A stretch of 64,000 nucleotides of DNA. It comes from Selaginella moellendorffii (lineage: Eukaryota; Plantae; Lycopodiophyta). How positions within the stretch are numbered: position 1 is the stretch's first letter; every line of letters begins with the position of its first letter. The notes under the pieces are model-generated. The model was not told where the DNA came from. It saw only the letters and a list, made by a program, of their open reading frames with translations, and did no database searches. The stretch is from assembly GCF_000143415.4 (NCBI RefSeq), contig NW_003314369.1, forward strand, positions 1 to 64,000. Direction: 5' to 3'. Below are positions 1,266-54,700 of the stretch, one piece after another. A program made the translations under genes and the position numbers.

Positions 1266-1349
1266 AAATACCTTAAATAAATTGTTATGGTTTTGTTATT
1301 ACTTATTAATCCAATTGTTTATAATTATAAGCATGTTTGCTCGTAATCT

Positions 1350-1421
1350 CGCCGTTGCCGGGGATCGAACCCAGGTCGTCCGCGTGACAGGCGGAAATAC
1401 TCACCACTATACTACAACGAC
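1350..1421 (-). tRNA. trnD-GUC: tRNA-Asp(GTC)
   Basis: Reverse complement GTCGTTGTAGTATAGTGGTGAGTATTTCCGCCTGTCACGCGGACGACCTGGGTTCGATCCCCGGCAACGGCG: 72-nt cloverleaf, anticodon GTC at 1386-1388, close to plant cytosolic tRNA-Asp. Confidence 0.95.
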
Positions 1422-8744: not shown

Positions 8745-9891
8745 TGTAAGGAACCAACTCGCCGAGGTGTCGTAGGCTAAAGGATCCCCGAAAGCATGAC
8801 CAAAATGATAAAGAGTTCATCGGATGGGACAAAGTCTGAGATCGAGTCCAAGACCGACTCTAAGACCGAGTTTGAAATAGAGTCCGAAATCGAGTCCGCG
8901 GCCGACTCGGAGGCCGATTTCGAGACCGAGTTTGAGACCGAGTTCGAGACGGAGTCCGAGATCCGAAATCGGGTCCAAGACCGAGTCCGAGGTCGGGTCC
9001 GAAATTGGGTCCGAGATCGAGTCCGAGACCGAATCCGAAGTCGGATCCGAGATCGAGTCCGAAATCGAGCCAGAGACTGAGTCCGAGTACTAATACGGGT
9101 CAAGGGGTGAAAGCCCAAAGCGTGCGTCCCCCAGGGGGGGGGGGGGGGGGGGGGGGGCTGCAGGGGGTTCCAAAAGTATAGTAGGGATAGGGAGGTTTAG
9201 GAACCAGTTTTGAAAGAACTCTTCAGTGGGGCTTCCAAACTGACTTAAGGTTGGGATTGGGACCGAGGGGCCTTGGGTGGGAGTGAGCATGGACTTGGTT
9301 GGTGCCGGAGGGGCCATCCAAGGAAGTGCTCAAGAGCAGCTCCCACTCTCGACAGGGAAATCGATTGCGGTGCTCCCGGCTCATGTGGAGTGGTGCCCCA
9401 CTTGAGTACCATGCGGCTCATTGGTCCTTGACCTTCTTAAGGGCTTGGGCCTTCCTTCGGGATGGAAGTGGGGGGGTAGAGGTACCCATACCGGGCCGCT
9501 AGACCACAGTGTTTCGCCCCGGCGTCCCGAAGCAAGTGTTGCACTCAAGACTTGGGATTTAGAGGGTCCCATGATCAAGTCTTGTGGTACCAAGGGATGT
9601 TAGGAACCTGGACGCTTGGTGTGTTTGGCTGCTTGTGCTTGCGGGGAGTGTAGCCGAACCTTAAGTCCAGTCTAACCCGGGGAGGGGGATTGGGAGTGAT
9701 TTGGGAATCCGTGGATGGATGGCTAACACTCCGTTGCTCGTGTAGTGAGTAGCTGAAACCAAGTAGGACCAAGTAGGAGCTGGTACCATAGGCGAGAACC
9801 TTGGCAAGGGAACTTAGCAAAAGCCAAGGCAGTGTTGGACGGATAGACGAGGTAAGCTGGCAAATTGGAAAGGAAAAATTTGTGGCTCACA
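8745..9891 (+). repeat. 5' LTR of chromovirus copy 1
   Basis: Direct repeat of 15854-17004 and 46378-47535; contains a hexamer array at 8835-9088 and a poly-G run. Confidence 0.95.
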
Positions 9892-9894
9892 ATT

Positions 9895-9906
9895 TGGTAT
9901 CGGAGC
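9895..9906 (+). promoter_or_regulatory. Primer-binding site for tRNA-iMet
   Basis: TGGTATCGGAGC 3 nt after the LTR end; canonical sequence is TGGTATCAGAGC. Confidence 0.9.
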
Positions 9907-9950
9907 ATTTTCCTCAGTTCTAGTGAAGGATAGAGGTGGATTGCTGGGAG

Positions 9951-12900
9951 ATGGCAAAGGCAAGGCGAAAGCGAACCAAGGCGGAGACGGAACCTCCTCC
10001 AGAGCTGGAGCCTCCGGTCGAACGAGAGGCTATGGATGAGGAATCCTTGCATGAGGAGGACTCCAGTGAGGAAACTTCCAAACAGGAGTCCGGTGGCGAG
10101 GTTCGGTCGTCCAAGGCTCGATTGGATATGCTAGAAGGACAGTTGGCACAGACCAATGCCCTGCTGGAGACTCTCGTATGCATGACGAGAAGTGGAAGAA
10201 AAAGCGAAAGACTGCGGATGTTGGCAGCGTAGAAGGTGCGGACCATTTGGTAGGGACTGAGGCAGAACCAAACAAGGTTGAACAGACTGAAGTGGAATCA
10301 GTCCCTCAGGCAGTTCCCAAGTACAAACCAAAGCCCCCACCGGTCTTCAAGGGAGTGAATGACTATAAGGTGGTGGAGGATTGGTTTTACAATATGGAGG
10401 ACTACTTCCGAGCGTTGCAATTACCAAGCTCACAGAAGGTCCCATGTGCAAAACCATACTTGGCAGATAATGCCAAGTCTTGGTGGAGAACAACAGAGGC
10501 CAACGAAGGACCGGTGGCCACTTGGGACATGATGAAGGCGAGGATCCGCGCGACTTACATTCCTCCGAATGCTACTCTGCATCTAAGAGACGAGTTGAGT
10601 AGGCTGAAGCAGACCGAAACCATTCAGGAGTATGTGAATGGGTTTATGGCAAAGAGGATACTTATCACGGACATGGGGTATATGGATGCGTTCCATGCCT
10701 TCATATTGGGCTTGCAAACCTGGGCTCGAAGCGAGGTGATGCGTTGGAACCCGACCAATTACAAAGAAGCGTTGGATGTGGCTATCAAGGTGCATTTCAA
10801 CAATAACCTGCGAAAGGGGAACACGACGGGGCCGGGGTCCATGTTTAACAAAGGGGCCAAACCAAGGGGAACATATAGCAAGAGGAAATTCAAGAAGAGT
10901 TTCTCTAAGAATGAGTCCTCAGGGTTCCGGAAAGGCAAATCCGGTGGCCAGCGAGCAAGTACGTGGGGGAGTCAAGCAAAAAGAGACAAACCCACGGATA
11001 AGAAGGTCAAGTCGTTTAGTAGCATGGGAAACAACGTATGTTACAACTGCGGTGAAGCGGGACACTTTTCGAGGGAATGTCCCTACCCAAAGAAGGCCAG
11101 AGCATATATGGCCATTAAATTGGGTGAAGTCCAAAATGAGGTATGTGATCTAGTCCCTAGCTCAAAGTTACTTATTACACGAGCAACTTTGGTAGAGAGT
11201 CGTTCGCGACATCTACTAGCCCTCCGAGGGAAGCTCGGAGGTAGCTTTGTTAAAATCCTTATTGACACGGGTGTTTCGGATAATTTTGTGGCTACAGACA
11301 TAGTCCGGCAAGCCGGACTAATGGTGCAGCGGCTGAGCGAACCAAGGACTATAGAGTTTGTTCAAGGTAGCTAAAGCACCGATGAGGTACTTTGACAAGC
11401 GAAAGTCGAAGTAGGGACTTGGAAAGTAGACATGGATTTCACCATGTTGGACATGGCGGGATTTGACGTGATCTTTGGGATGGATTGGTTCAATCGGTTT
11501 GTGGTAGCCCTGCATGGACAAGGTAGGAACCTTGTGGTATTAGCAAATGCCCAAGGAAGAAGATCCAGGGTGGAGGCCCAGGATCTAAAGGTAGGGCAAT
11601 GCAAGGCCAAAGATTCGTGCCTAAATGTAGCGCACCTTATCTCTCTCCCCTTAAGCCAACTGGAAAAGGGGCAATTGCTTGATGAGAAAGCCCTTAGTGG
11701 CTATTTTATCCCCATTTATCCCCCAAGGTTCCAAGGATCCACGGCGACAGTATATCCAAATCTCATCCCATGATCATATGCGCTACACTAAACCTGGTGT
11801 CCACGAGAGGACAACTCACTAAAGGGATAAAGGTTGCATTTTTGTGCTTACTCTCGGTGAGAAGTGACAAAAAGACAGAAACGGAAGAAGTACCTTTAGT
11901 GATCCAGCGGGTGTTGGACCAATTCTAGAATACCATGCCGGAGGAGGAGCTACCGGCGGGGTTGCCCCCCGCACGACCGATAGAACATAAGATTGAGCTG
12001 GTCGAGGGTGCTGAGGCGGTGGTTCGTCCACCCTATCGTTTGAACGAAAAAAAACTTGCGGAGCTCAAGCGCCAACTAGAGGAGTTGGTGGACAAAGGGT
12101 ATGTTAGGTTGAGCAAATCACCGTATGGGGCACCGGTGCTATTTGTGAAAAAGAAAGATGGATCTATGCGCATGTGCATAGACTATCTGTTGCTTAAAAA
12201 AAATATACAAAGAAGAACAAGTACCCTTTGCCAAGGATTGAGGACCTGTTCAATAGGTTGGGAAAGGCAAAATACTTCTAGAGGATTGACCTTAGGTCAG
12301 GATACTACCAGATCAGGGTAGCAAAGGAAGATGTCGAGAAGACAACCTGTCGAACGAGGTATGGGAGCTTCGAGTTTTTGGTGATGCCCTTCGGGCAATG
12401 CAATGCGCTGGCAATGTTTTCGGCGTCGATGAACCATATCTTTGTACCCTATCTGGATCACTTTATGGTCGTCTATATTGACGACATCCTAATCTATAGC
12501 GAAACGCTAGAAGAGCATGCCAAACACTTGACGAAGGTGTTTGAGAAACTAAGGAAACACCAGCTGTATGCTAAAGAGAGCAAATGTGACTTTGCTCAGC
12601 AAGAGGTAAAGTTTCTCGGGCATGTGGTGGGCAAGGACGGGCTCAAGGTGGACCCTGAGAAGGTCCAAGCAATCCAGGATTGGGAGCGACCATCGAATGT
12701 ACACAAGTTAAGGGCATTCTTGGGGCTATACAACTACTATCGAAAGTTTATCAGACACTATTCGAGAGTAGCACTACCCTTAACGGACCAAACGGGAAAA
12801 GAGAAGATGGTATGGACAGCAGAATGCGAGGCGGCATTCGTCCACCTCAAGGGGAAGTTGAGGAAGGCTCCTGTGTTAGCGTTACCAGACTTTGGTAAGG

Positions 12901-13765
12901 ACTTTGAGGTAGAAACGGATGCTTCAGACTTTGCGTTGGGCACAATTTTGAAACAAGACAACCATCCAGTAGTGTTCTTCTCGAAGAAGTTGGACAAGGC
13001 TCAACGGAAATGGCCTGCCCACGAGAAGGAATTGTTTGCGGTGGTCAAGGCGCTCAAGGAGTAGCGACACTACCTTGGGAGACACTTCAAGGTTTACACG
13101 GACAATGTGGCAACGAAACACTTCTTGTCACAGCCCAATCTGAGAGGGAAACAGGGCCAGTGGGCCAATGCTTTGGCCGAGTTCGATTGCAAGATTTTGT
13201 ACAAGCCTGAAAAGAGCAACATCATGGCAGATGCGCTAAGTCGAAAAGTGAGCTTGAAGTTAGTGATATCCAGCACAACAGCAACCTTTTGGGATGATGT
13301 GCGGACAGCATATGAGAATGGTGGTCTAGCACAAGAAGTGTTGCTGTAGAATCTAAAGGCACAGGAAGCCCACAAAAGAGGTGAGCTGCCAACATAAGAG
13401 AAAATGGGCTATGCAGAACGCAACGGACTCATCTATTACAAGCAAACAAAGGTGTATGTTCCAGAAGGGGAACTAAGGAAGGTAGCCTTAGAAGAGTGTC
13501 ATGACGGACCTCTTGCGGGACATGGCAGAGTGCCCAAGACAATGGGCTTACTCAAAAGGAAGTACCACTGGCCAGATATGGCTAAGGACGTCCAAGACTA
13601 TGTAAAGACATGTCCAACATGTCAGCAGGTCAAAGCCGTGATTAAGGCTAGTGGGGGCTTGTTACAAAGCATCCCAATTCTAGATCGTCCGTGGAAATGT
13701 CTTACGATGGACTTCATCACGGGACTCCCTCCAAGCGAGGGGTTCGATGCGATATTTGTGGTGGT
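9951..13765 (+). pseudogene. gag-pol of copy 1 (Gag, PR, RT, RH, N-terminal part of IN), disrupted
   Basis: ORF pieces 9936-10232, 10178-11374, 11935-12321, 12378-13064 and 13404-13765, with frameshifts and stops. Confidence 0.9.
11626..11787. mobile_element. 162-bp insertion with 9-bp terminal inverted repeats (mini solo LTR / TRIM-like)
   Basis: TGTAGCGCA...TGCGCTACA ends, 5-bp TSD CTAAA; absent from the paralogous site at ~42880. Confidence 0.9.
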
Positions 13766-15687
13766 CTCACCTCACCACGCCCTAGTATGGGGTCGGGACT
13801 TGAACCCAGCCTTGCTTTACTAGGGGGTTGGGACTCGAACCCAACCTCCATAGAATACGTCTACGGATTCGACATCCCCGCAGGGAGTCGGGCGTAGTTC
13901 CCTACGTCTGGTGGACCTAGCTAACCCATGCTAATTAGCTTACCTTCAGCGTGCCTTCGGGTCCCAACATATGCCATTGCTCAACTTCACAAATATATAC
14001 TTTAATTGAACTTTGCATAAGTACATAGAGTTCTGCCTCGCAGAAATTCCTCCACTAGATCTCGAGCGTTCGCTAGGTTCTCCTCCGGTTCCCATGTTGC
14101 TTCGCAGTGTGGAAATCCTTTCCACTTCACATGGAACTCTCTCACCTCGCATCCTTGTCGCTTGCTCTTGCGCGCATTGAGGATGGCCTCGACTTCGTAT
14201 TCCTCTTCCCCTTGGATAACCTCAGGTAAGGGTCTTAATTGGTCCTTGCGAAGCGGGTCCTCAAAATACGGCTTGAGTAAGTTCACGTGGAACATGGGGT
14301 GCATCTTCCCCATCTCTCAAGGAAGTCGGAGACGGTAAGCCACTTTACTGATTCGAGCCTCAATCTCATAAGGCCCCGCAAACTTGCTTAAGGAACTCAA
14401 GATCAATTCATTTACAGGAATACATGCATTTTTACCTTTGGGTCGACTTCTGGCTGATCCCACTTGGTAGCTTGAGGTTCTTGGTGTTCAGCCACACCTT
14501 CTCCCCAGCTTGGAACTCTACGTCCAAGCACTTCTGGTTTGCGTACTTGGTTTGCCTTTATTGAGCCTGTTCCAAGGAATCCCTCACTAGATTCCAAATG
14601 TTGAGTCTTTCCACCGTGAATGCCTCCACTACGGGTAACTCTCCATGATACTCGGCTACACTGAGTTCCACAGGACTTTCAATAGCTCGCCCATTGATGA
14701 CTTCCCATGGACTCACCCCGATGCTCGAATGTGGTGAGTTGTTATAACACATTTTCGCAAGTCCCAAATGACTTACCCAATCGGTCTAGTCTCTTGAGAC
14801 ATAGCATCGCAAATAATCCTTTAGTTGCTTATTCACCCTTTCCGTTTGTTTGTCAGTCAAGAAGTGTTAGTGCCATCAAACTTGACTTAATACCCAATAC
14901 TTGTCTGTGGGTGGTAGGCTATGCTAAATTTCAACTTGGTGCGATACTGTTCCAAGAGTGTTCTCCAGAACCTACTGGTGAAGATCTTATCTCGATCCGA
15001 GATAATCCGGACCAAAACCAAAACCCGAGTTAGGTGGGACGTGGTAGGAGCTGAAGTTGGGACCACAGTGTGGGAGGCCCTTGGACGGGCGAGATGGGAG
15101 GTATGGCGGGCTTCCGGGGTACAGGCACTCTGGGAGGCTCGGAACCGCAACCACTTCGAAGGGCAGTGCGCTCGGATTTCAGCGATCATGGCGAATTGGT
15201 GGAGGCTCACACTGGCTGCTATCCGCTTGAGGGACACGCTGCTCCAGGAGCATGGGAAAAACAGGGAGGCGCTCACAGCTTGGCAACAACTATGGATTCC
15301 GTGCTACGGGACTGAACACGAGGGGGAGGTCAAGTGGAAATGGAGACCTTCGGACACGGTAGCAAAGGAGGCTCGACGTGGCGATCTGGCACTGGATGCA
15401 CTGCGGAGGCGACGACCACAGCAGCCACGTTTGGAGGGCAGCAATCACTATTAGGTAGAGAATTGCAGGACAGCGTAGTTGAGTGAACAGCGCTAAGGGA
15501 TTCTCGTTTTTTGTATCAGTCCCTAAAGGACTTGGAGAAATGTACATACATGTTGCATCGATCTGAGATAATCTCTTCTGGCCTTCCCCACACTCGAACC
15601 ACTTGTTCAAAGAGCAGCTTTGCCACACCTTCCGCATCCACTTCCATTGTGGTGGGTATGAAATGTGTCATCTTCGAAAATCGATCC
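13766..15687 (-). other. Internal inversion carrying integrase core, chromodomain and part of the 3' UTR of copy 1
   Basis: Reverse complement is collinear with ~44849-46204 of copy 2; re-inverting restores VVVDRFSK. Confidence 0.92.
15008..15557 (+). mobile_element. 5'-truncated LINE (non-LTR retrotransposon) 3' end
   Basis: 16-bp TSD TCGATC(C/T)GAGATAATC at 14992-15007 and 15558-15573; W-rich LINE ORF2 C-terminal motif [16 protein letters not shown]; absent from copy 2. Confidence 0.8.
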
Positions 15688-15853
15688 GAGTATAGGGACA
15701 CCTATATTCCGTTGTCATGGGCTCTTGGCCGGGGAGGCTAACTTAGGCACACCACTAAGTGGGGGGATGCCCCCGGAGACATGGTCAACAAATCGTAGGA
15801 TAAAAAAGAGACGTTCGATGTGGGCATCGAACTTCTTCTATGGGTGGTGGAGT

Positions 15854-17004
15854 TGTAAAGAACCAACTCGCCAAGGTGTCGTAGGCTAAAGGATCCCCGA
15901 AAGCATGACCAAAATGATAAAGAGTTCATCAGATGTCCAAGACCGACTCTAAGACCGAGTTCGAGATAGAGTCCGGAATCGAGTCCGCAGCCGACTCGAA
16001 GGCCGATTTCGAGACCGAGTTCGAGACCGAGTTTGAGACGGAGTCTGAGATCTGAAATCGGGTCCGAGACCGAGTCTGAGGTCAAGTCCGAGGTCGGGTC
16101 TGAGATCGGGTCCGAGATCGAGTCCGAGAGCGAGTCCGAGACCGAATCCGAAGTCGGATCCGAGATCGAGTCCGAGATCGAGCCAGAGATCGAGTCTAAG
16201 TACTAATACGGGTCAAGGGGTGAAAGCCCAAAGCATGCGTCTCCCAGGGGGGGGGGGGGGGGGCTGCAGGGGGTTCCAAAAGTATAGTAGGGATAGGGAG
16301 GTCCAGGAACCAGTTTTGAAGGAACTCTCCAGTGGGGCTTCCAAACTAACTTAAGGTTGGGACTGGGACCGAGGGGCCTTGGGTGGGAGTGAGCATGGAT
16401 TTGGTTGGTGCCAGAGGGGCCATCCAAGGAAGTGCTCAAGAGCAGCTCCCACTCCCGACAGGGAAACCGATTGCAGTGCTCTCGGCTCATGTGGAGTGGT
16501 GCCCCACTTGAGTACCATGCGGCTCATTGGTCCTCGCCCTTCCTAGGGGCTTGGGCCTTCCTTCGGGATGGAAGTGCGGGGGGGGGGGGTAGAGGTACCC
16601 ATACCGGGCCACTAGACCATGGTGTTTCGCCATGGCGTCCCGAAGCAAATGTTGCACTCAAGACTTGGGATTTAGAGGTTCCCATGATCAAGTCTTGTGG
16701 TACCAAGGGATGTTAGGAACCTGGAAGTTTGGTGTGCTTGGCTGCTTGTGCTTGCGGGGAGTGTAGCCGAACCTTAAGTCCAGTCTAACCCGGGGAGGGG
16801 GATTGGGAGTGATTTGGGAATCCATGGATGGATGGCTAACACTCCATTGCTCGTGCAGTGAGTAGCTGAAACCAAGTAGGACCAAGTAGGAGCTGGTACC
16901 ATAGGCGAGAACCTTGGCAAGGGAACTTAGTAAAAGCCAAGGTAGTGTTGGACGGATAGACGAGGTAAGCTGGCAAATTGGAAAGGAAAAATTTGTGGCT
17001 TACA
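15854..17004 (+). repeat. 3' LTR of chromovirus copy 1
   Basis: Direct repeat of 8745-9891, preceded by the G-rich tract TGGGTGGTGGAG. Confidence 0.95.
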
Positions 17005-23500: not shown

Positions 23501-26500
23501 ACTCCTTGGCTAAGGATGGTGATGTTCAACTTAGTTGTTTGAGTTTGAGATGTTGGTACCCGTACTATAGCTTTGACTATGAGGAGGTTGTGTACCGATA
23601 TGAGTTCATCTCATGGTCTTCACTTTAGTTTCGACTGAGTGTTGATCATGTATAGCTAGTCTCTTCTAAGGCATGCTCAAAGTTGTTGGCTAAACGCATT
23701 GGTGAGCTTATTGTGGTTGAGTTGGATTCGAGTAGTCATTTAGTTCGTGCTTATCCATGAACTTTTATCTCATACCTGGGGTATTACGTTTATATTGGAC
23801 AAGTATATGACTCGATGATATGAGTTTAGTGTTTAGGTCTTATAAAGGCAAGACAAGTGATTGTCGGTTGCTTTGCAACTAGTGATTGCTTGTAGACTTT
23901 GTCAAGGGCTTTTGACATTTGCTTCACTCGATGATGATTTAGCAATGATGGGCTTGCTTTATCAGATGGGGTTGCGGAGGATCGTGTCGTTAGACTTACA
24001 TGGGTTTTCCATGTTGGCATGTCGACTCTACCTCTGTTGATATCATTTGGTTGTGTTTAGTTCATAGTGTTGGATTTCATTGAGTCTTGGACGTAGTGAT
24101 TCACTCCTTGAGGAAGTTTTATCTGTAACTGAGTTTTGCTGAAGGATTGGTCTCGGATACTAACTAAAGTATTTTTGACTTTGGTTAGCTTAGTTGTTAG
24201 AGAGATTTGAGTGGTGATTCACTTGTGCTTTCTTCTAACTTTGTTATGGTGTTGATGGCATTGAAGTGATGCCTTGTCGTTGACATTGTTGATGTTAAGA
24301 TTTGAGTGAAATGAGATGTCTCTTTATAAGATGGGTTTGGGGTTTCATTAGTTTTAATGGAGATAGTGTCGATGATTTGGCTATAGCTTTGTGTTATTAG
24401 CATTCGCACATTTGTTAGTTAGCAACTCTGTTGACATTCAAGTGAACTGAGTGGCAAGTTTGAGTTAGTTGTGTTCTAGACGAGATTATTTAGTAAAGGT
24501 TGAGCTTTGACTTTTCCTTGAAAAGTGGTTCAGTCGTGGACTATGCTAGCTTTATAAGAGGAAAGAGTTAGTGATTGAATCCTTGCTGAATTTCAGTTTA
24601 GATATATCAATCATTAATGATTCTTCTTGTGCTTGCTATGAAGTGAGTTATGTTTTGCTATAGATGGATTCATGGAGGATCGTTTGGTGATCACTTGTTG
24701 AGCATAGCTTCGTTATGTTTAGCTTTTGAATTGATGCAAACATGCTCTTCATTAGCTTTGCATTATGTAGTATAGCTTATGGATGTGTTGAGGAGGATAT
24801 TGTGGATTGTGCCATGATTTCTTCTTTAGCATTGAAGTTAGTTTATGCGAGACTTGTGATCATTGTTAGGAAAGACTTGGCTATAGACTTCTTCGAGCTT
24901 TTGGTTCTATGAGTTTTATGCTCATTGTTCCATTTGTTAGAAGTTGTTGGGAAGGCATTTTGGCTCATTAGCTTCGATGTTGACGTTAGTTTTTGCATCT
25001 AGCAATCATTGGTGATGATTGACTATCATCTAAGATAGTTGATTATCCTTGTCAAGGGTTTTGCTTGATTATTGTTGGTATAAAATGATTTGCTGTTCTT
25101 CGGGATAGTAGATTCTTTCTTTGATGATGATTATGCATTTCTCTATTGATAGGATGATTGATGATCTTTCATGATGGTTAGTTGTTCTCTTTGATGGCTT
25201 ATAGCTTTTCGCAATACCACATGTTCTTTGTGGTTTGCTCTGGATTGGTCTCTTGGGTTTGAGACATCAGTAGGATGTTGCTGACACTTGCTTAGGCAAC
25301 TTGAGTTCCTTGGTATTGTTGGCTGGGATTTATTCAGATTGGCTTTTGTGATAGTTGGCAGGATTGAGTGTTTGTTGGTTTTACCGCATTCATTTTCTTC
25401 TATTGGTTGTTGCTCGAGTTAGTTTTGATAGATTTGGATGTTATTTCCTTTGGGTGATACATTCGCAAGCATTTTGCTTGTCAGTTAATAATACTTTGTG
25501 TTCTTTGAGTTATCTTTCGTAAGTTGTTTGGCATTCTATCTGCGATGTTTGATAGTTAAGTTTTATCATTGAGTTTCTTTGATAATATCCTTGCTATTGA
25601 ATTTTGTTGAATGGTGATTCCTATGTTTACCAATTATGATAATCTTGGTGGTTCCTATCCTATACTACTGGTTTATCGGATGATAACTTACTTAGAATAC
25701 TTTTGTGTTCTAATCTAAGATTTCATCACTGGTAATCAAGTCTCTAAGATATCATTGTCTCTGACTTTGATAATGTACATCTATTGATCTTTGAGTTTGG
25801 GCCAGTAATGGGCAGATTGGCTTCGGCACTTTGTGTGCATGTTGAAATCTTTAGTCATGGGGTAGCTACTGTCGACTGGTCACATAACCCGCCTCTCTGT
25901 CGATGTTCTTTATTCCGTTGAAAGGGCGTGACCGTGTAAACAACTCTAACTACCTGTTTACAATAGTCTATCTAAACCTTACCGACGGGTTTGGTTTCTT
26001 TGCTCATGAGGGTTGGGACCCCTGGCTCCTCTCTCTATGTCTCTGTGGGCAGGGTATATCACACTTTTGTAAGTTGGATGACAACCAGAGCAGCAAGGGT
26101 GGCTGACTCCGTTGGTCATTTCCTTGTCGGCGACGGCCGGAAGGTGTCTGAGCTGGTAGCGCATCCGCGTTAGATAAAGAGGTTGCCTCCTAACTCATTT
26201 AAGTTGGTGCATTTCTCACATAGTGTGAATACCGTGAACTTTTTCTGGAGTTTTTTCCTTGGCGGTATTCTAGACTCGAGTGTGCATCGACGAGGACGTC
26301 GATCTTCCCTAGGGGGGGAGAGTGTCGCGAATGTGACTTCAGGTATCGAAAGTTACCTGTCGGCCAGTCCTTTCGGATATTCTTTCCTTACTGCCACGAT
26401 GGCAGGAGGTCGGTATTGCTGGACCCGTTATTAGTCTCCGCCTAAGCTAGTTGAGAAACTGGTCATCATATGTGCACTTAGACCAGAAGGGCACTAAGGA

Positions 26501-27050
26501 AGGAAATCCTAAGTTGTCATTTAGTCAAACAGACTTGACACGGTGATGAGAAACTCATGATGTTGGCTTGCACTTGCTAGTGTTGGGAACCCCCGCAATA
26601 TTGAGTTTGGTCCCTCAATATTCGCTAGATGATAGCTTACCATGTCTGCCAAACACCTTCACTATCATGCCCTTAGCGTTAGTCTCAATTCGGTCCCAAA
26701 TGCTATTTATGGAAAGTGTCCAGATTTGCTCATTTGGCATGTCTACGGAATGTAGAGATCGGTCTGAACATAATGGTGTTCGTCCCGTGTCCAAATTCGC
26801 AATCTAACGCCATTCCATATTTAGTAAGTTTCGAGCTTGTCCCAGAGACTAACTCCTGGTATTAAGGGTAGGCTTGGTACCTTCGTTTAGTGGCCCAAAA
26901 CCTCAGGTTCCTATGGATACGTGGCGTGGACATGTGGCATGTGACACATGGCATTTGTCACGTGGCACAAAGATGGTTTAGGTACCGCTTCGTGATGTTA
27001 TCCTATGGTAAATCACCATAGGATAAAGGGTCAAAACCACGTGCGCTACA
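20599..27050 (+). mobile_element. Non-coding LTR element (LARD-like)
   Basis: LTRs 20599-21755 and 26323-27050 (TG...CA), TSD ACCTA, PBS TGGTATCAGA after 21755, PPT AGGGGGGGAGAG before 26323; 4.6-kb interior with no ORF over ~85 aa. Confidence 0.9.
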
Positions 27051-34983: not shown

Positions 34984-37900
34984 TGTGAGTGCATGGAATA
35001 TGGAAAGGGAATACAGAAATGTACATATCAATTAACCCAAAAACCATAGCTTATATACAAAAGTGAGTAGTCCGGATTGAAACCAATTTGACGGCTACCA
35101 AAATCCCACTACGCTAATATTAGTATATGGCATCATAGCCGTACACTTGGCCCTCACATCATCCCCTCCTCTCGGAATAATGGAAGACCATCAGAGTTTT
35201 CTTATAGACGGGCTGGGATCTGGAGGAACATCAAGAGGAGGCATTGGCGGATCTGTAGATGGTATTAACTACTCCTGATCCCTTTGTATGAAGTGTTTTA
35301 ATTGCTGCACATGCACAATATTTGGAGGATCGGCTTGCTGGATATCATGCCGAACCTCATAAACTTGTGGTCCAACTTGCCGCAACACCCGATACGGTCC
35401 TTTCCACTGTGCAAGAAGCCCCTTAGATAAACCACGTACCGTAAAATGGGAAAAATGGACTAACACTAAATCATTCACTTTGTACTCCGCAAGTGGACGA
35501 TGATGGGAGTTGTAGCGTTGTTGTTGTCCCACTTATATATGGCCTAAGTGTTTGGCAGATTCCGCTCGGACAAGTGGAAGAATGCTCGTCAAATATTGAT
35601 CCCATGATCTAGCATCCGTAGCTCGTGGCAATCACGAAGGTAAACCTAGCTCCATTGGTAATATTGGATCATGACCATATAAGAATTTATATGGTGAAGC
35701 ACCAACAGAACTCTGCACCCCAATAACATATGCATACCGAAGAGACGGCAAATAACCATCCCAATCCGAATGCTGAAAGTTCACATACTTCGTAATCATC
35801 CCCTTGAACGTCCGAACGAGCCATTCCACCAAACCATCTGATTGTGGATGATAAGCACTCGTGAAAGTGTGGTGAATCCCCAACCGAGACGTCAAAACAT
35901 GAAATGCCTCAACCATAAATGTGGGACCATTATCCGAAAGAATCCGCTCTAGACAAGAATGCTAGAACACCACTCAATTGAGGAGGAAGTATCCAAGAGC
36001 AGTTGCAAAGGCGCTAGCAAGAACACCAACTTCCACCCAACAAGTCAAATAGTCATAAACAATAATAACATACTCATTGCCAGTAGTCGACCGTGGAAAA
36101 GGTCCCATAAGATCAAACGCCACCAACTCAAATGGACGGGAAACTGCAATTGACTCCAACCGTCCTTCTGCAGCCCGAGGGGGAGTATTACGAGCTTGGC
36201 ACCAAACATAGCTACGCACATACCGGATAATATCACGTTGCATCTCCGGCCAATAGAAAGACTTGCGTAGCTTCTCGATTACATGACGATGTCCTATATG
36301 CCCACCTAGAACAGGAGAATCATGGTAGGCATGGAGAAATTGCGGAATAAAGATAAAAGGCACCACTAGCCATAAATGATCATCAAGATCTGTCCCCACA
36401 AAATAAAGAAGGCTATTTTCAAGACAATATTGAGAATGTAAATGCCGGAAAGGAAAGTCATCAACAAGTGATACAGGATTCTCAAAACTATCTCGAAGCC
36501 TTCGAATCCACAGCTCAATCTTTTGAGCCTCGCGAACCTCATCAAACGAAGGTAGATCTTGCTTTGCACCTTGTGGACACTGAACGTCAAGTACAACAAT
36601 TGCTGACGGCACAAAATCCTCGTCTAGAAAATCCATAAAACGCCTGAGATACTGCACCTTGCCCAAGAAGCGTTGCACATCATTCACACACTTCGGAGTA
36701 GGGAATTTTAGAACAGACACAAGTTTGTCAGGATCAACTTGCAAACCCTCACGAGAAATACGGTACCCAAGATAAGTTGTGTCCTTGGATCCAAATACGC
36801 ACTTCGACCGCTTCAGCTTTAAACCAACGTCGCGTAACCGATCCAACACTTTACAAACATCACGAACGTGCTCCTCCCATGTCCCCTCCGAGTGGATCAA
36901 GACATCATCAATAAAGTCAGCAGTCACCTCCGGCATATCGTAAAGAACCTCGTCCATCATCCATTGAAAAGTTGCTAAAGCATTGTTTAAACTAAATGGC
37001 ATCACCAAGAACTCATACAAACCAAATGGTGTATAAAAAGCAGTCTTAGGAATATCTTCTTCGGCTATCGGTACTTGCCAGTACCCAAAAGCAAGATTTA
37101 GCTTGGTGAACCAACGACTTCGCCTTAGATGATCCAAGAGATTAGCAGTGTGAGGAAGAGGGTACACATCCGGGATCATTACGTCGTTTAATGGACGATA
37201 GTCGATGCAAAAACGAATACTCCCATCAGGCTTCGTCACAAGATAAGGTTCACATGCCCAAGAACTCCACGACTTCTAAATAACACCCTTCTCCAACATT
37301 TCCTTGACATTTGCACGTAAAATCTTGATCTCCTTTGGTGACCGACGACGAACAGGAACCTTGATTGGACAAGCATCCCCAATTGGAATTGGATGACGTG
37401 TGGCAATTTTGGCTCCAGACGATAGGTCAAATTCAAAGAGATCAGAATACTCCTTCATGAGCCGGTCAACTGCTGCAACACAAAGATTGTCGGAAGGATC
37501 GGAAAAGGGAAGAGCAGAACAAGATGGAAACACAGGAGGAAATAGTGGGGGAACAAAAGTAATGGAAGCAAAGGTAGAAGTAGAGGGACGAAGAGGTACG
37601 GAAGTGAAAGGAATGGATTAAACATAAGGAAGTATGAGACAAGGGGGAGAAGCCTCAAAGTCACATTTGGCATGATTGCGCTGCAACCAATCCATACCAA
37701 GAATGAGGTCAAAAACTTGACTCGACACCACCCGCAACGACTGCAACTCAAGCTCGAGATCGCCCACACGCACAACTAGATCTGCCTCATCCCATGCACA
37801 TGCATGTGTACGACAGTTGCCATAAAGAATGAAAACTGGTTCCACTGCACGACGCAAGTGTAGACGACAACGTGTGGCAATAGGTCGAGCAATAGAAGAT

Positions 37901-39062
37901 AAACTCAAACCTATATCAACCAACACAGAGAGGATAATAGGAGACCTCTTGTTATAAAGACGAGCTTGGAAAGTAAACACTGGATGAATTGGTGCCGAGT
38001 GAACCCCTTGATGATACTCCCGAAAGAAAGATGGAGGGGTCACTGACTTATTCGCGCAAGGTCCCTCCATTACTCGTGCGACTCCTCGTTTCCCGGATGT
38101 ATCTCGGTGTCCAAACCTTCCACGACAGCAGCACCAATAGGACGTTGCTGACGCCAAGGTCTCCACCTAGGAAATGGGGTCGCCAATCCGGAAAACGCCG
38201 GCAACACCGATAAGTATGACCAACTTCATCACATGCCCAGCAGTGAACATCACGGCCACGACCACATCCTCGCCCTTGGCCTTGGACTCGAGCAGTAGCA
38301 GCATCAACCTCCATTGGAACAGGACCATCACCCACAAGAAGTGGAGTTGAAGGACGTGCAGCGAGAAGTGGAAGAGGCGATGTCTCATAACATTGTGCCA
38401 AGCGAAGAGCATCATCAAGGGTGGCAGGAGCAAGTGCATGCACAATTCTGACAAGATCTTGATGAAGTGCTGGCCACAACATTCCTAGCTTGATCCGCTT
38501 TGACATATTTGGCTCCGCACGAAGCAAAAGACTTCGGAAACGAACACCAAATTGCATCACCGACTCAAATGGCCCTTGGTGAAGACGATGCAATTGTTAG
38601 AAGGCATTGTCACAGTCGTCAGCATGTCCAAAGGCACGTTTGAAAATGTCTGGGAGAACACTCCAATCCTCACGAGTGGCTGCGCTCAAACCATTGTACC
38701 ACTGCAACGTCGTCCCTTGAAGACATGTGGGAAACTCACGTAAACGTCAAGTATCATCCCAAGAATGATATGTGGCAATCATTATGAAGTGATCGAACCA
38801 ATGGTACACATCATCCCCAGGATTCCCGCGAAAGAACTCCGGCCAAACGCGAGGATTAGCACCAAAAGTAGGAGGAGTTGTACTACGTGCCGTGAATGCC
38901 GCCATCAACTGAGTTCGGTTGTTCAATTGCAAGTGCATAGCATCAAGCAATTGTACCAATTGTTGCTCCAGAGTCAAAGGAGGAGATTGTTGATCTACTA
39001 TGAAGACAAACGAACTGCTAATATTAGTATATGGCATCGTAACCGTACACTTGGCCCTCACA
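34984..39062 (-). mobile_element. Short-LTR Ty3/gypsy element with 4-bp TSD, RNase H absent
   Basis: 3' LTR 34984-35158 (175 bp, TG...CA), 5' LTR remnant ~39018-39062, PPT GAGAGGAGGGGA, TSD CCTT; gag (PVPMEVD, CWACDEVGH), protease LVDIG, RT FIDD, integrase DLMGPFP and YHPQSDGLVE, WKGPY. Confidence 0.9.
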
Positions 39063-44100: not shown

Positions 44101-45069
44101 CCCACGAGAAGGAATTGTTTGCGGTGGTCAAGGCGCTCAAGGAGTAGCGACACTACCTTGGGAGACACTTCAAGGTTTACACGGACAATGTGGCAACGAA
44201 ACACTTCTTGTCACAGCCCAATTTGAGAGGGAAATAGGGCCAGTGGGCCAATGCTTTGGCCGAGTTCGATTGCAAGATTTTGTACAAGCCTGAAAAGAGC
44301 AACATCATGGCAAATGCGCTAAGTCGAAAAGTGAGCTTGAAGTTAGTGATATCCAGCACAACAGCAACCTTTTGGGATGATGTGCAGACAGCATATGAGA
44401 ACGATGGTCTAGCACAAGAAGTGTTGCTGCAGAATCTAGAGGCACGGGAAGCCCACAAAAGAGGTGAGCTGCCAACATAAGAGAAAATGGGCTATGCAAA
44501 ACGCAACGGACTCATCTATTACAAGCAAACAAAGGTGTATGTTCCAGAAGGGGAACTAAGGAAGGTAGCCTTAGAAGAGTGTCATGACGGACCTCTTGCA
44601 GGACACGGTGGAGTGCCCAAGACGATGAGCTTACTCAAAAGGAAGTACCACTGGCCAAATATGGCTAAGGACGTCCAAGACTATATAAAGACATGCCCAA
44701 CATGTCAGCAAGTCAAAGCCGTGACTAAGGTTAGTGGGGGCTTGTTACAAAGCATCCAAATTCTAGATCGTCTGTGGAAATGTCTTACGATGGACTTCAT
44801 CATGGGACTCCCCCCAAGCGAGGGGTTCGATGCGATGTTCATGGTGGTGGACCTATTTTCGAAGATGGCACATTTCATACCCACCACAATGGAAGTGGAT
44901 GCGGAAGGTGTGGCGAAACTGTTCTTTGAACAAGTGGTTTGAGTGCGGGGAAGGCCAGAAGAGATTATCTCAGATCAAGATAAGATCTTCACCAGTAGGT
45001 TCTAGAGAACTCTCCTGGAACAGTATCGCACCAAGTTGAAATTCAGCACAGCCTACCACCCACAGACAG

Positions 45070-45116
45070 GTATTGGGTATTAAGTCAAGTTTGATGGCAC
45101 TAACACTTCTTGACAG
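45070..45116 (+). other. 47-nt GT-AG intron in the integrase core (copy 1 equivalent 14854-14900, minus strand)
   Basis: G|GTATTG...CTAAC...TTGACAG; removal gives AYHPQTD(R)Q(M)ERVN. Confidence 0.85.
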
Positions 45117-45534
45117 ACAGACAAATGGAAAGGGTGAATAGGCAGCTGAAGGATTATTTGCGATGTTATGTCTCAGGAGACTAGACCGATTGGGTAAGTC
45201 ATTTGGGACTTGCGAAAATGTGTTATAACAACTCACCACATTCGAGCATCGGGGTGAGTCCATGGGAAGTCATCAATACGCGAGCTATTGAAAGTCTTGT
45301 GAAACTCAGTGTAGCCAAGTATCATGGAGAGTTACCCGTAGTGGAGGCATTCACGGTGGAAAGACTCAACATTTGGAATCTAGTGAGGGATTCCTTGGAA
45401 CGGGCTCAACAAATGCAAACCAAGTACGCAAACCAGAAGTGTCTGGATGTAGAGTTCTAAGCTGGGGAGAAGGTGTGGCTAAATACCAAGAACCTCAGGC
45501 TACCAAATGGGATCAGTCGGAAGTTGACCCAAAG

Positions 45535-45586
45535 GTAAAAATGCATGTATTCCTGTAAATGAATTGATCTTGAGTACCTTAAGCAG
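45535..45586 (+). other. 52-nt GT-AG intron before the integrase GPY/F motif (copy 1 equivalent 14384-14435, minus strand)
   Basis: AG|GTAAAA...TTAAGCAG|G; removal gives SRKLTQRFAGPYEI. Confidence 0.85.
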
Positions 45587-46377
45587 GTTCGCGGGGCCTT
45601 ACGAGATTGAGGCATGAATTGGTAAAGTGGCTTACCATCTCCAACTTCCTCAAGAGATGGGGAAAATGCACCCAGTGTTCCACGTGAACTTACTCAAGCC
45701 GTACTTTGAGGATTTTCTTCGCAAGGACCAAGTAAGACCTTTACCTAAGGTTATCCAAGGGGAAGAGGAATACGAAGTCGAGTCCATCCTCAATGCGTGC
45801 AAGAGCAAGTGACAAGGATGCGAGGTGGGAGAGTTCTATGTGAAGTGGAAAGGATTTCCATACTGCGAAGCAACATGGGAACTGGAGGAGAACCTAGCGA
45901 ACGCGTGAGGTTTAGTGGAGGAATTTCTACAAGGCAGAACTCTATGTACTTATGCAAAGTTCAATTAAAGTATCAATTTGTAAAGTTGAGCAATGGCATA
46001 TGTTAGGACCTGAAAGCGTGCCGAAGGTAAGCTATTTAGCATGGATTAGCTAGCTCGACCAAGCGTAGGGAACTACGCCCGACTCCCCGCGAGGATGTCG
46101 AATCCGTAGACATATTCTACGGAGGTTGGGTTTGAGTCCCAACCCCCTAGTAAAGCAAGGCTGGGTTCAAGTCCCAACCCCATACTATGGCGTGGTGAGG
46201 TGAGGAGTATAGGGACACCTATATTCCGTTGTCATGGGCTCTTGGCCGGGGAGGCTAACTTAGGCACACTGCTAAGTGGGGGGATGCCCCCGGAGACATG
46301 GTCAACAAGTCGTAAGATAAAAAAAAAAAGAGAGACGTTCAATGTGGGCATCGGACTTCTTCTATGGGTGGTGGAGT

Positions 46378-47535
46378 TGTAAGGAACCAACTCTCCAAGG
46401 TGTCATAGGTTAAAGGATCCCCGAAAGCATGACCAAAATGACAAAGAGTTCATTGGATGGGACTGAGTCGAAAATCGAGTCCAAGACCGACTCTGAGATC
46501 GAGTTCGAGATAGAGTCCGGGATCGAGTTCGAGGCCAAATCAAAGACCAAATCAAAGACCGAGTTCGAGACCGAGTTCGAGACAAAGTCTGAGATCCAAA
46601 TTGGGTCCGAGACTTAGTTCGAGGTCGAGTCCGAAGTTGGGTCCGAGATCGGGTCCGAGATCGAGTCCAAGATCGAGTCCGAGACCGAGTCCAAAGTCAG
46701 GTTCGAGATCAAGTCCGAGATCGAGTCCGAGATTGATTCTGAGTACTAATACGGGTCAAGGGGTGAAAGCCCAAAGCATGCGTCTCCCAGGGGGGGGGCT
46801 GCTGCAGGGGGTTCCAAAAGTATAGTAGGGATAGTGAGGTTCAGGAATCAGTCTTGAAGGAACTCTCCAGTGGTGCTTCCAAACTGACTTGAGGTTGAGA
46901 CTAGGGCTGAGGGTCCTTGGGTGGGAGTGAGCAGGAACTTGGGTGGTGCCAGAGGGGCCACCCCAGAAAGTGCTCAAGAACAGCTCCCACTCCTAAAAGG
47001 GAAACCGACTGTGGTGCTCCCAGCTCATGTGGAGTGGTGCCCCACTTGAGTACCTTGCGGCTCATTGGCCCTCGCCCTTCCTAGGGGCTTGGGCCTTCCT
47101 TCGGGATGGAAGTGGGGGGGTAGAGGTACTCATATCGGGCTGTTAGGCCATGGTGTTTCACCCCAACATCCTGAAGCAAGTGTTGCACCCAAGACTTGAG
47201 ATTTAGAAGGTCCCATGATCAAGTCTTGTGGTACCAAGGGGTGTTAAGAACCTGGAGGCTTGGTATGATTGGCTACTTGTGCCTGCGGGGAGTGTAGCCG
47301 AACCTTAAGTCCAGTCCAACCCGGGGAGGGGGATTGGGAGAGATTTAGGAATCTGTGGATGGATGGTTAACGCTCTATTGCTTGTGCAATGAGTAGTTGA
47401 AACCAAGTAGGACCAAGTAGGAGTTGATACCATAGGTGGGAACCTTGGTGAGGGAACTTAGCAAAAGCCAAGGCAGTGTTGGACGGATAGACGAGGTAAG
47501 CTGGCAAGTTGGAAAGGAAAAATTTGTGGCTTACA
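46378..47535 (+). repeat. 3' LTR of chromovirus copy 2
   Basis: Homologous to 8745-9891; TGTAAG...TTACA ends. Confidence 0.93.
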
Positions 47536-48464
47536 CCAGGATTTGCATGCAAAACAATGTCAAATGGTGTGTACACAATTTTAATATACCAATGGCTTAC
47601 CGTGAGGAGGTGAGTACCACATCAATTAGCATAGTATGAAGATTAGGCTTAAACCCAAGTCAAACGTAAAACAAAGAGCAATACACCCCTGCAAAAGCCA
47701 ATTTAATATCTTTGATGGTTAGCTATACAATCCAACCACTATCCCTATTAGACACTTGAACCTTCTCCTTTACATCCAAAAATATTAAGACTCAAATACC
47801 CTTTAGTTGTCACTAACAAAGAGTTAGCCACCTTTGTTGCTCCGAGTACCAATTGACTTACAAAGGAATGATACACCCTTGTCTATAGGGATATAGGGAA
47901 AGAGCTAGAGGCCTAACTCCCCTGAGTAGAAATCAATTTCATCGAGAAGATTTAGACAATTATTATAAGTTAGTAGAAGAAATTGTTTATATGACCATAC
48001 CCCTTTTAAAAAATGAGTCAATGAGAGAGTGGTAAGAACTTGTGATCAGTCGATAATAGTTATCCTTATAATTATGAATTAAACCCATTCACCGAAGTGT
48101 CAAAGTCAACCTGCCAACACTGACCCAAAACTAATGAACGAAAGAAACAAAACTTGTGAATTTAAAGAAATGTATTACTTTATTGATTTGCAAGATTTAT
48201 TACAAAGGTTACAAAAACTACTGTTTATTATAATTTTCATACTCCGTGATAAGCTCACGGGCATGTGTAAGATTCCTAAGAGGCTCCCAAGTTAATTCAC
48301 AAGTTAAGTAACCTTTTCACCTAACAAAATATTCCTTCACACAAACCCATCTCCAAATAGAGAATCTAATATATTCTCAGGTGCACCATCCACAACATTT
48401 GGTGGTAGATGAATCTCTCCTTGCCGTACAATATCCATAGTGTACGGTGCCATAATGTACAGTG

Positions 48465-49739: not shown

Positions 49740-49772
49740 ACCCTTAGATTGCTGGTTCGATTCCGGCAGATT
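49740..49772 (+). pseudogene. Remnant of a tRNA-Tyr 3' half
   Basis: ACCCTTAGATTGCTGGTTCGATTCCGGCAGATT resembles plant tRNA-Tyr ATCCTTAGGTCGCTGGTTCGAATCCGGCAGGT; no 5' half visible. Confidence 0.5.
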
Positions 49773-51713: not shown

Positions 51714-54700
51714 TTGGGAGTCGATCAGCTGACGTGGCATGTCCACGTGAGTTTGAGTCATGTAAAAAGAGTCGGAACACAATGAACGAGCTCATGAGTG
51801 TTATGTCCATCCCTTTTCACATCACAACATGGTATCGGATTTCGGGGACGATCCTGGTTGGTTGATTTGACGTTGCTGTCACGGCCGCTTCAACCCCACC
51901 ACCGCCGCTGCTGCCGCCGCCGCCGCCGCCACCAGTCTTCTCTCACGATCTTCTAAATCGATATTTTACATAGTAACCCTGCCCTATTATATTGGCGGCG
52001 ATGGAAGCTCTGTGGCACGAATTTCTTCACATGGGCGACAAGAATCAGGCTGATCCTCTCTGTGAAACGAGCGTGGAACATCGTTGATGGGACTTCGCAC
52101 GATCTTCGTGGCCCAAGCAGTAAATTCTTCCATGTTGCTGAATCATGGCGCTTCACATGGAAACGGATGAAACCATTGCTGTGTACGTGGGACGGATTCG
52201 AGGGCTAATGGCTGAATTGACTGGTGCTGGGTCTCCTGTCACGGACGATCGCGCCAGGGCGTTGCTGCTTGCAACCGTCACGCCTGCATTTAGCACGCTC
52301 GCATCTGTTCTATCTCACATGGCCATGAACTTTGATCGTCACTATTGCCACAAACCTGGACACTTGGCGAGGGATTGCAAGAAGAAGAAAGCTGATCGTG
52401 CTAAAGCTGCCAAGAACAAAGACAAAGAAAACAAAGACAAGGGCTCTGGGACTCCTCGTAAGCTCTTGATGGCTCGCTCTGCAAGCAGCAGCCACCAGCC
52501 CGTGCTCGGACCAGAGCTGTGGCTGGATTCTGGAGCGTCATTCCATATGACGCCCATGGCTTCCTTGTTCTTTGACTACCAAGAACCGTGTGAGCGTGAC
52601 GCCGTGGGACTCGGTGACTCCTCTGCTCACGACGTGCTAGGCAAAGGAACAATCAGGGTTCAGCTCTCTTCTGGAGAAATCCGGGAGATCTATCCTGTGT
52701 CGTATGTTCCGGGACTCACACACACGCTGCTGTCGATTGGAACTGCTGCTCAAGTAGGCTTCGATACTCTGTTCACAGCACAGGGAGCGTTGCTGGATGC
52801 CGAGACTGGAGACAAGGTCGCTTTTGGAGTTCCAGTTGATACGCTCTACCGCCTGGATGCTCACGTGATCCTTCCACCTGTGACACTTGCAACCTGGCAC
52901 GAGCGCCTTGGTCACGTGAACGAGCAACAGCTCAAAAAGGTGGATGTTCCTGTGGCGCTTGGGAGTGCGCTGCCCTTCTGCGAAGCTTGTGTTGGTGGAA
53001 AACACGTATTTCCTTTTCCACAGATTTCTCATTCTCGAGCAAGTTCTGTTCTTGAGTTAGTACATTCGGACGTTTGTTCGATTATGGTTGAATCTTTGGG
53101 AGGCAAACGTTACGTCGTCACCTTCCTGGATGATTACACGCGGTACCTGATCGTGTACCTGCTGGCTCATAAGTCAGAAGTGTTCTCCTGTTTCAGCCAA
53201 TACAAGGCTTTGGTAGAAAAGCTACACGACTGTTTAGTTCGTGTGCTCCGCTGCGATCATGGAGGAGAATTCGTCTCTGGAGACTTCGAGACGTTTTGTG
53301 CTGAAGCTGGGATCCAGCGCCAGTATGCTGTCCCTGATGCACATGCCCAGAGTGGTGCTGCCGAGAGGGTGAATCGCACCATCATAGAAGCTGCATGCTG
53401 TATGCTGCTTCACGCGGGAATGCCGGCTGCTTTCTGGGGAGAGGCAGTTAACACGGCTGTTTATGTTCGAAACCGGTTGCCAACACGTGCCCTGCCTGGG
53501 AAGACCACTCCTTATGAGCGTTGGACTGGTCACGCACCTGGTTACGATCATCTCCGCATTTTTGGCTGTTTCGCCTATGCACACGTTCCACACAAGCAAC
53601 GCCGAAAGCTGGAGTCAAAGGCTGAGCCATCCATTTTCCTGGGATATTTGGAAGGCATGACAGGATATTGCCTTTATTCTCTCAAGCGCAAGACTTTGCT
53701 GGAAGGACGGGATGTGCTCTTTGATGAGAGCAAGCTCTACAAGGATTGCACTGAAATTCCTGCTCCTACTTTCGTGGAACTCCAGCTGGTGGACACAGTT
53801 CACGTGACTACAGCTCCTTCTCAAGTCCCATTGCTGCCTCTTGCTCCTGCTGATGGTAACGTGGTGGTTCCTCCAGCACTGCCACCATGCCCTTTAGCTA
53901 CGCCTCTGCAAGAATCTCCTCCAGTGAGAACATTTAGCTTCTCTGAAGAGCTGATGAACACTTACTTCAAGGGCGACGAGGAATTTCAAGCTGCTCCTGA
54001 GTTCTTCCTCGTCTCATCTTCAGTGGGAGCTGGACGTGGATCATCACCTTCAGTGGGAGCTGGAAGCAGGTCGCCAACTTCAGTGGGAGCTCTCCCAGAC
54101 TCTCCACTTGTTCCACCACCTGTGATCCACCCTCCAGCACGTCCTGAACCACGGCGCTCTGCTCGAGTTCCCGTACCATCGAGGCTGCAACTGGAAGCTG
54201 AGCAATCTCGTCCCTTCTTTAGTTTTGGAAAAATTAAAAAGAAAGGAACGCACCAGGCTAACTTCGTGGCTGCTAATCCAGAGCAAATCCCCATTCCAGC
54301 GAATGTTGACGAGGCATTAGCTAGACCTCATGCTGCCCAATGGCAAGAAGCCATGAATGCTGAAATGCATTCGCATGAGCGAAACAATACAATGACAAAG
54401 ACAACCTTACCTGAAGGTGCTCACCCTGTGAGCTCGAAATGGATTTACACAGTCAAGTACAAACCTGATGGAACTGTAGTAAAGTTCAAGGCCAGGTTTG
54501 TCGCGCGGGGATTCAGCCAGATTCCAGGTTTGGAATACATGGAGACGTACTCACCAGTTGTGAAGTTGACCTCTGTGCGAGTGATCCTTGCACTGGCTGC
54601 CAAGTACGACCTGGAACTGCACCAGTTGGACGTTCGCACTGCTTTCCTGCACGGCAAGTTGAACGAGGAGGTCTACATCAAGCAACCACCTGGATTCGTC

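Follow-up and report, generated by a model that had tools for sequence, protein, structure and literature searches.

Retroelement RNA is known to contain structured cis elements, and plant viruses to contain T-arm mimics; both are established kinds of signal, and we draw on them, here as throughout, from the accessible parts of the papers cited. In bromoviruses, the tRNA T-arm mimic is box B, which undergoes modification in vivo and is required to recruit the template (PMC4083346, PMC5869524, PMC13191261). The packaging signals described for retroviruses lie in the 5′ leader; zinc knuckles of NC recognize exposed G, as in the GGAG tetraloop bound by HIV-1 NC and in the RSV SL-C tetraloop, and the HIV GGAG loop can be replaced without a packaging defect (PMC7599994). 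Ty3 packaging depends on UTRs or POL, and the packaging sequences of Ty1 and Ty3 are not precisely defined (PMC4974528). How plant LTR retrotransposons choose and move their own RNA is largely unknown (PMC12786077), and a compact folded UTR with T-arm mimics offers a concrete target for the question of RNA selection.

Such a UTR is present in the window, a stretch of 64,000 nt of Selaginella moellendorffii DNA that was analysed as a whole (Table 1). It belongs to a decayed Ty3/gypsy element that, by Pfam matches and translation, carries gag, a CCHC knuckle, RT-RNase H, integrase and a chromodomain, in the layout of a Galadriel-type chromovirus (gag, RT-RH-INT order, C-terminal chromodomain; clade definitions from PMC6317226). 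The element occurs twice. Copy 1 has LTRs at 8745-9891 and 15854-17004 that are 90% alike, a Met-type PBS at 9895-9906 and a 5-bp target duplication. An internal inversion (13766-15687, matching 44849-46204) cuts its hairpin H5 after the first base, and a 550-bp insert at 15008-15559, flanked by a duplicated 14-bp stretch, is probably a LINE fragment. In the second copy, the 3′ copy hereafter, the pol stop codon at 45966-45968 and the start of the 3′ LTR at 46378 enclose a UTR of 409 nt, which the hairpin module fills, so that its initial placement between pol and the 3′ LTR was borne out. The chromodomain is best seen in the copy 1 counterpart (14002-14313, reverse strand; Pfam Chromo, E 1e-16).

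Judged from its features rather than by alignment, the element is very probably the known Selaginella family SM1-Galahad of the Galadriel clade. The two agree in length (~7.5 kb), in LTRs of >1 kb that are ~90% alike and contain a poly-G tract, in the Met PBS, CCHC knuckle, type I chromodomain (CHD_I) and high copy number, and in the host (PMC3350952). UTR structure is absent from that description, the words hairpin and untranslated occurring 0 times in the accessible text. SM-Tcn1, with 5.7 kb, 440-bp LTRs and no PBS (PMC2864245), was considered and ruled out.

Table 1. Coordinates of the retrotransposon features in the window
Feature	Position	Strand	Basis or remark
Copy 1, full-length decayed element	8745..17004	+	
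Copy 1, module 5′ part (H0 to T2)	13766..13970	-	within inversion
Copy 1, module 3′ part, pre-PPT hairpin (15813-15832) and PPT	15688..15853	+	
Pre-PPT hairpin of second LTR family, 7 bp, loop AGGA	26286..26303	+	no T-arm motif
pol end: chromodomain region and stop codon	45759..45968	+	translation; broken here
3′ UTR, pol stop to 3′ LTR, 409 nt	45969..46377	+	strongly folded
H0, 8 bp in copy 1	46030..46051	+	one mismatch in 3′ copy
H1, 6 bp	46063..46078	+	loop GGAA in 3′ copy
H2	46080..46100	+	two rare changes in 3′ copy
H3, 8 bp, 5-nt loop	46103..46123	+	
T-arm mimic T1, 7-bp stem, 7-nt T-loop	46124..46144	+	
T-arm mimic T2, outer 8-bp stem, asymmetric internal loop	46145..46190	+	fold of copy 1 counterpart
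T2 inner stem (T-loop 46166-46172)	46159..46179	+	
H5, 10 bp, loop GACA	46204..46227	+	
Multibranch domain, three short hairpins	46228..46306	+	stronger on + strand
Pre-PPT hairpin, loop NGGR closed by G-C, 8 bp in copy 1 (15813-15832)	46337..46356	+	two changes in 3′ copy
Polypurine tract (PPT)	46364..46376	+	sequence; adjoins LTR
3′ LTR, TG...CA, with poly-G tract	46378..47535	+	

The window holds further elements and genes. An LTR element at 20599-27050 has a Met-type PBS, a PPT and a T-rich 4.5-kb interior without long ORFs, and an insert in its 5′ LTR (21144-21560) looks like a portion of the Galahad LTR. Other decayed gypsy elements and a copia pol ORF (914 codons) occupy 35278-38600 (-), 4219-5285 (-) and 52142-54886 (+); the gypsy elements among them show neither a chromodomain match nor T-arms. 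An ORF at 189-1265 encodes an mpaB/rubber oxygenase catalytic domain (PF09995, E 1e-10), a family known mainly from fungi and bacteria, and a germin-like gene shares 96% identity with a protein of Selaginella moellendorffii and at most 53% with those of other named genera.

The UTR folds well beyond chance. The predicted fold of 45970-46378 has −154.4 kcal/mol (z −4.42), a stability equalled by 0 of 100 shuffles, and 46000-46320 gives z −5.1. Three successive 150-nt windows from 46000 reach z −3.2 to −4.3 on the + strand, a run that is unique among 62 windows, with lone windows in gag-pol and the LTR also below −3. Perfect-stem matches number 9 in 46000-46305, some of them overlapping registers, against a mean of 1.7 and a maximum of 7 in 1000 shuffles; elsewhere in the element, 19 bins of the same size (306 nt) hold 0-5 each. 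The 3′ half is stronger on the RNA strand (46200-46305: z −3.71 on + against −1.84 on −). The dense structured module proposed in the initial annotation was thus upheld, and its named stems are all present: H1, H3, T1, the core of T2 at 46163-46175, H5 and H2, the CGAC...GTCG hairpin. Copy 1 retains them, as had been claimed for most, with 10 differences in 243 nt. Its inverted piece nevertheless folds weakly (z −1.3) and the T-arm part at only z −0.8. The two copies also differ in shape: two separate T-loops are predicted in copy 1, whereas in the minimum-energy fold of the 3′ copy the T1 and T2 regions pair with each other. For long-range pairing, no perfect 10-mer joins the UTR to the 5′ LTR, leader or 3′ LTR, and one joins it to pol.

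The tetraloops did not keep their initial reading as GNRA. The fourth loop base of H1 (46072) is G in 82% of family depth, giving GGAG; GGAA was seen only in the two window copies, and GNRA is therefore not a family feature. In the GACA loop of H5 the R position is taken by C. H2, in copy 1 as in the bulk of the family, carries a UNCG-type tetraloop with a C-G closing pair.

At the centre of the module, two helices on the genomic-RNA strand are tipped by a tRNA T-loop. The GUUCRANYC loop sits at the stem tip, on the replicating strand, in T2 of both copies and in T1 of copy 1 and of 87% of family depth. T1 of the 3′ copy carries T at tRNA position 56 (46133), found in 13% of depth in run X1, where copy 1 and the other 87% have C; the likeness of the two loops to the T-arm/B-box consensus, as first claimed, thus holds, except for that base in the copy from which it was claimed. 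Shuffling the UTR produced a T-arm mimic in 19 of 20000 trials and two in 0 of 20000, a test in which the arms are not independent, because T1 and T2 are identical at 22/27 positions and probably derive from one duplication. Their stems of 5-7 bp exceed what a DNA B-box needs. No variant is listed at ≥1% at A58 of T1 (46135), hence no trace of m1A misreading. Exact T1 patterns had 0 matches in viral contigs and 0 in prokaryote genomes. The 23 double T-arm matches in viral contigs were rejected as unrelated, since 20 of the 21 scanned with ARAGORN are tRNA clusters with repeated tRNA 3′ parts; in these phage clusters a second T-arm often lies 21-51 nt past the first, as if tRNA 3′ parts had been duplicated. 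A lone 7-bp T-arm-like hairpin without a tRNA call lies in A/T-rich DNA at 49748-49768 of the window.

The module is not a recognizable tRNA. ARAGORN calls none there, its sole call being a distant tRNA-Asp(GTC) gene at 1349-1422 (-), and the Rfam search that had been suggested gave no significant match to the module (no tRNA at E 10), nothing coming near threshold (best ~15-16 bits against 42.5). The T-arm sequence does align with mascRNA/menRNA (RF01684), which is the best or second-best match, at 14.6-15.8 bits against the threshold of 42.5 (E 6.3 and 0.95); the acceptor stem in the window is poorly paired. We accordingly rejected a cloverleaf or mascRNA-like fold, there being no D-arm and a weak acceptor stem. 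The only good A-box match, at 46148, ends ~5 nt before the second B-box, and no T4 run occurs from 46100 to 47540. A tRNA gene, SINE or Helenus-type promoter was rejected on these grounds (no cloverleaf, A-box at ~5 nt instead of ~30-60 nt, no T4). Helenus TRIMs, one family of which lives in the same host, are LTR elements with tRNA-like sequence, but they are tiny and non-autonomous and carry in their LTR a complete promoter of A-box and B-box (PMC10886601), whereas the Galahad copies have T-arms only, in the UTR of an autonomous-type element. Compared by eye, the tRNA-derived TRIM Helenus-1_SMo has the B-box alone in common with the module (PMC10886601).

Variation across the family was taken mainly from contigs of run X1, which give 4352 records over 45930-46400 and at least 40 of 41 variant rows, depth serving as a rough weight. 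Run X7 bears a different organism label and has the same common letters, so that we did not count it as independent. Relative to the family common state the 3′ copy carries several rare changes, among them one mismatch in the T2 outer stem, at 46188. The list of variants at ≥1% covers only the middle of these positions, short of the 3′ side of T2. Fourteen of the 27 variable sites classified lie in CG/CHG contexts, and 6 of these 14 break a pair, a pattern that the methylation decay of dead copies would produce. The 12 other sites at ≥1% comprise 6 that are unpaired, 4 that keep their pair and 2 that break it, with one further site at 0.1%; where the rare share is ≥5%, 7 of 7 are unpaired or pair-keeping. 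The respect for pairing among non-CG/CHG variants is only suggestive, the list being censored by thresholds and transitions often preserving pairing anyway via G-U. A few reads from other runs fall on the UTR (4 in X22 and one contig in X18), and X23 and X24, each sampled to ~12%, gave 0 reads on 46100-46200.

A sister subfamily is visible in loose ends of 30 letters (27 contigs of X1, and X7; agreement 0.82-0.88). By eye, it has a different spacer between the arms, keeps both T-loops, carries a second arm that is a near copy of the first and shows one A-U to G-C swap in the outer stem; pairing persists in the stems of H3 and H5, and H2 seems to have been replaced. The subfamily thus appears to retain both T-loops with one compensatory pair. 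Separately, a probable solo LTR at 5233-6856 shares its short tandem repeats with the Galahad LTR, and its first letters resemble the loose ends past the PPT in X1 and X7, which suggests a sister family with a common pre-PPT block and another LTR.

A comparison of the two window copies gives 10 differences in 243 sites of the module and 191 in 2973 sites of pol, so that the conservation of the module does not significantly exceed that of pol (p 0.17). The LTR has 126 differences in 1138 sites (p 0.0005), and the 5′ stretch of the UTR has 14 in 95.

To place the module among relatives we used 87 related loci, including the best 80 of 573 metagenome matches, 50 of them with a chromodomain match. 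No sense-strand T-arm occurs in any of the 87 (508,525 bases), 5 chance-level matches lie on the opposite strand, and the best blastn hit of the UTR against these loci has E 0.052. A B-box-like word in one locus (L093) was rejected, as it lies in the LTR and has no stem. In another (L106:3718-3906), one hairpin directly follows the next at the start of the LTR (z −7.2 over 229 nt). The window element falls, in an RT tree of 42 rows built without a named Galadriel reference, into a 100/99 clade with 9 loci and proteins of Cinchona and Sesamum. In all 9 loci the PPT lies, by eye, within ~110 nt of the chromodomain match; the T-arm module is therefore dispensable for close kin, and the long folded UTR is most simply explained as a gain in the Selaginella lineage.

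A second structure, outside the region first noted (46000-46305), has a much wider distribution. Immediately before the PPT a hairpin exposes an NGGR loop, with a perfect stem in copy 1, and relatives carry such a hairpin 24-33 nt before the LTR (for example L031:4925-4946, L034:7475-7496 and L093:2880-2901). The PPT was called blind to the hairpin, with a call in 33 of 50 loci and none in 17, and some miscalls, judged by eye, counted as misses; the hairpin is found in 12 of 33 loci, 2 of them doubtful (L062, L072), against 35 of 1485 control places. Selection by the GGRC motif alone recovers 21 of 35 sites against 258 of 2945 controls, and stem pairs 3-7 of the motif-selected sites are Watson-Crick above shuffles (p 0.0002-0.004). 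We then aligned 18 loci with three window sites, having dropped L080 for a wrong PPT call, re-anchored the 3′ copy by hand and added 26284-26305 after its hairpin was seen. In this alignment 72% of cells pair and 6 of 7 pairs change on both sides; covariation is 0.605 against 0.207 and is reached in 0 of 500 shuffles, which ignore kinship among rows, with slid controls at 0.15-0.24. Median RT identity among 19 of its rows is 46%, one close pair standing at 87%. The pre-PPT pairing is under selection across distant gypsy elements. By eye, the hairpin is also in both Ajax TRIM internal sequences and one Helenus family, and is absent from several other Helenus internal sequences and from SM-Tcn1. 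It likely acts in RNA selection or plus-strand priming.

This hairpin is the finding of wider import, because it covaries across elements whose RT sequences are only ~46% alike. It is testable in model gypsy elements that bear one, and annotators could use it to mark 3′ ends. It goes unmentioned in the accessible text of PMC11381356, PMC5371799 and PMC3362945. In the open-access literature, judged mostly by titles and the openings of abstracts, we found no description of the Galahad UTR fold, of T-arm mimics in LTR-retrotransposon UTRs or of a pre-PPT hairpin, and closed papers, repeat databases or supplements may have them. The T-arm mimics in a structured retroelement UTR and the covarying pre-PPT hairpin may thus be new.

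Taken together, the data make it probable, though well short of certain, that the module is a selected RNA structure. As for its job, we tentatively favour RNA selection or packaging through Gag, which by analogy with known systems we put slightly below an even chance. Gag of the element would select, through the folded UTR, the genomic RNA to be packaged and reverse-transcribed. In the Selaginella lineage a tRNA T-arm, or something resembling one, would have been gained and then duplicated, the T-arm domain being built upstream of an older core, the pre-PPT hairpin. Each T-arm would sit at a helix tip without a D-arm, as in bromovirus box B, and could be a substrate for the host enzymes that make m5U54, pseudouridine 55 and perhaps m1A58, while the tetraloops that expose G would be bound by the CCHC zinc knuckle of Gag. 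The RSV SL-C loop reads UGCG, and matches of four-base loops are cheap as evidence. We count for this reading the folding beyond chance, stronger on the RNA strand in the 3′ half, and the CCHC knuckle in Gag; against it count the weak fold of the T-arm part of copy 1 and SM-Tcn1 of the same host, which by eye has neither the T-arm nor the pre-PPT hairpin. T-stems longer than a DNA B-box needs, the sister subfamily and the variants that respect pairing also speak for it; the lack of T-arms in the 87 relatives, a divergence not significantly below that of pol, the 5′-leader location of the retroviral packaging signals and the missing trace of m1A misreading speak against it.

The strongest competing explanation, itself rather unlikely, is that the T-arms are passengers: a captured tRNA or SINE fragment, duplicated in the UTR, spread with the family, the hairpins being a by-product of G/C-rich, template-switched sequence and only the pre-PPT hairpin being functional. 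The likeness of T1 to T2, the absence of T-arms from 87 of 87 relatives, a module no more conserved than pol, the A-box-like word at 46148 and a tRNA-derived TRIM in the same host (PMC10886601) all fit such a history. It leaves eight adjacent helices that are not tRNA-like to be explained, however, as well as the apparent rebuilding of the T2 helix by a compensatory pair in the sister subfamily; moreover, neither ARAGORN nor Rfam finds a tRNA remnant, and the likeness to Helenus-1_SMo, by eye, stops at the B-box.

Control of RNA stability or translation, with the T-arms drawing pseudouridine and m1A writers and the structure shielding the UTR from decay or small-RNA silencing without any role of Gag, strikes us as improbable. 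Both loops fit the GUUCNANNC / GUUCRA motifs of mRNA targets of TRUB1 and TRMT6/61A, but those modification data come from human and yeast and the reported effects on stability conflict (PMC11019747). An m1A in the template would also be expected to hinder reverse transcription.

We give even less credence to a nuclear export element akin to CTE, MTE or RTE, the analogy drawn in the initial annotation. The IAP and musD export elements do occupy the same position in their elements as the module, and tRNA export receptors, against this reading, need free RNA ends. Like the module, the MTE of musD and the RTE of IAP are structured cis elements that function in LTR-retrotransposon RNA, but they act through NXF1 and no T-loop is mentioned in the accessible accounts (PMC3362945, PMC12786077). 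The predicted fold of the module, set against theirs, shows no kissing loop or pseudoknot, and Rfam gives no match to CTE, RTE or MTE. Although export of plant LTR RNA is unstudied, a review states that TAP/NXF1 is not used in plants and that most plant LTR elements are intron-free (PMC12786077); since the element itself shows no sign of an intron, the analogy is weak and a CTE-type export role is poorly supported.

Least likely of all is a DNA-level role of tandem B-boxes binding TFIIIC, as an insulator or internal Pol III promoter, a reading also raised at the outset: two B-box matches in the family common state and TRIMs with tRNA-type promoters in the same host speak for it, yet it fails on geometry (the A-box and B-box lie ~5 nt apart, and 1.4 kb of sequence contains no T4 terminator), the stems reach beyond the B-box, and Helenus and Cassandra keep their promoters in the LTR, not the UTR (PMC10886601).

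The Gag-based reading can be widened into a joint proposal that, as a whole, we regard as unlikely, and as a little less likely than the passenger history. Ty3/gypsy elements of plants, fungi and animals would share an undescribed NGGR pre-PPT hairpin as a core replication signal, as its retention even in tiny non-autonomous TRIMs would indicate, and the Galahad lineage would have added a tandem T-arm mimic, modified by the host and read by Gag, as a retroelement counterpart of box B. Box B comes from an unrelated virus, is recognized by protein 1a and not Gag, and occurs as one motif per RNA rather than a tandem pair; its function and modification have been shown, whereas those of the module are predicted. 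Both, nevertheless, present an isolated T-arm mimic on a bulged stem-loop of a replicating RNA, in box B within the intergenic region of BMV RNA3 and the 5′ UTRs of RNA1 and RNA2, and if the proposal is true, a retroelement and an RNA virus have reached the same tRNA-mimic trick.
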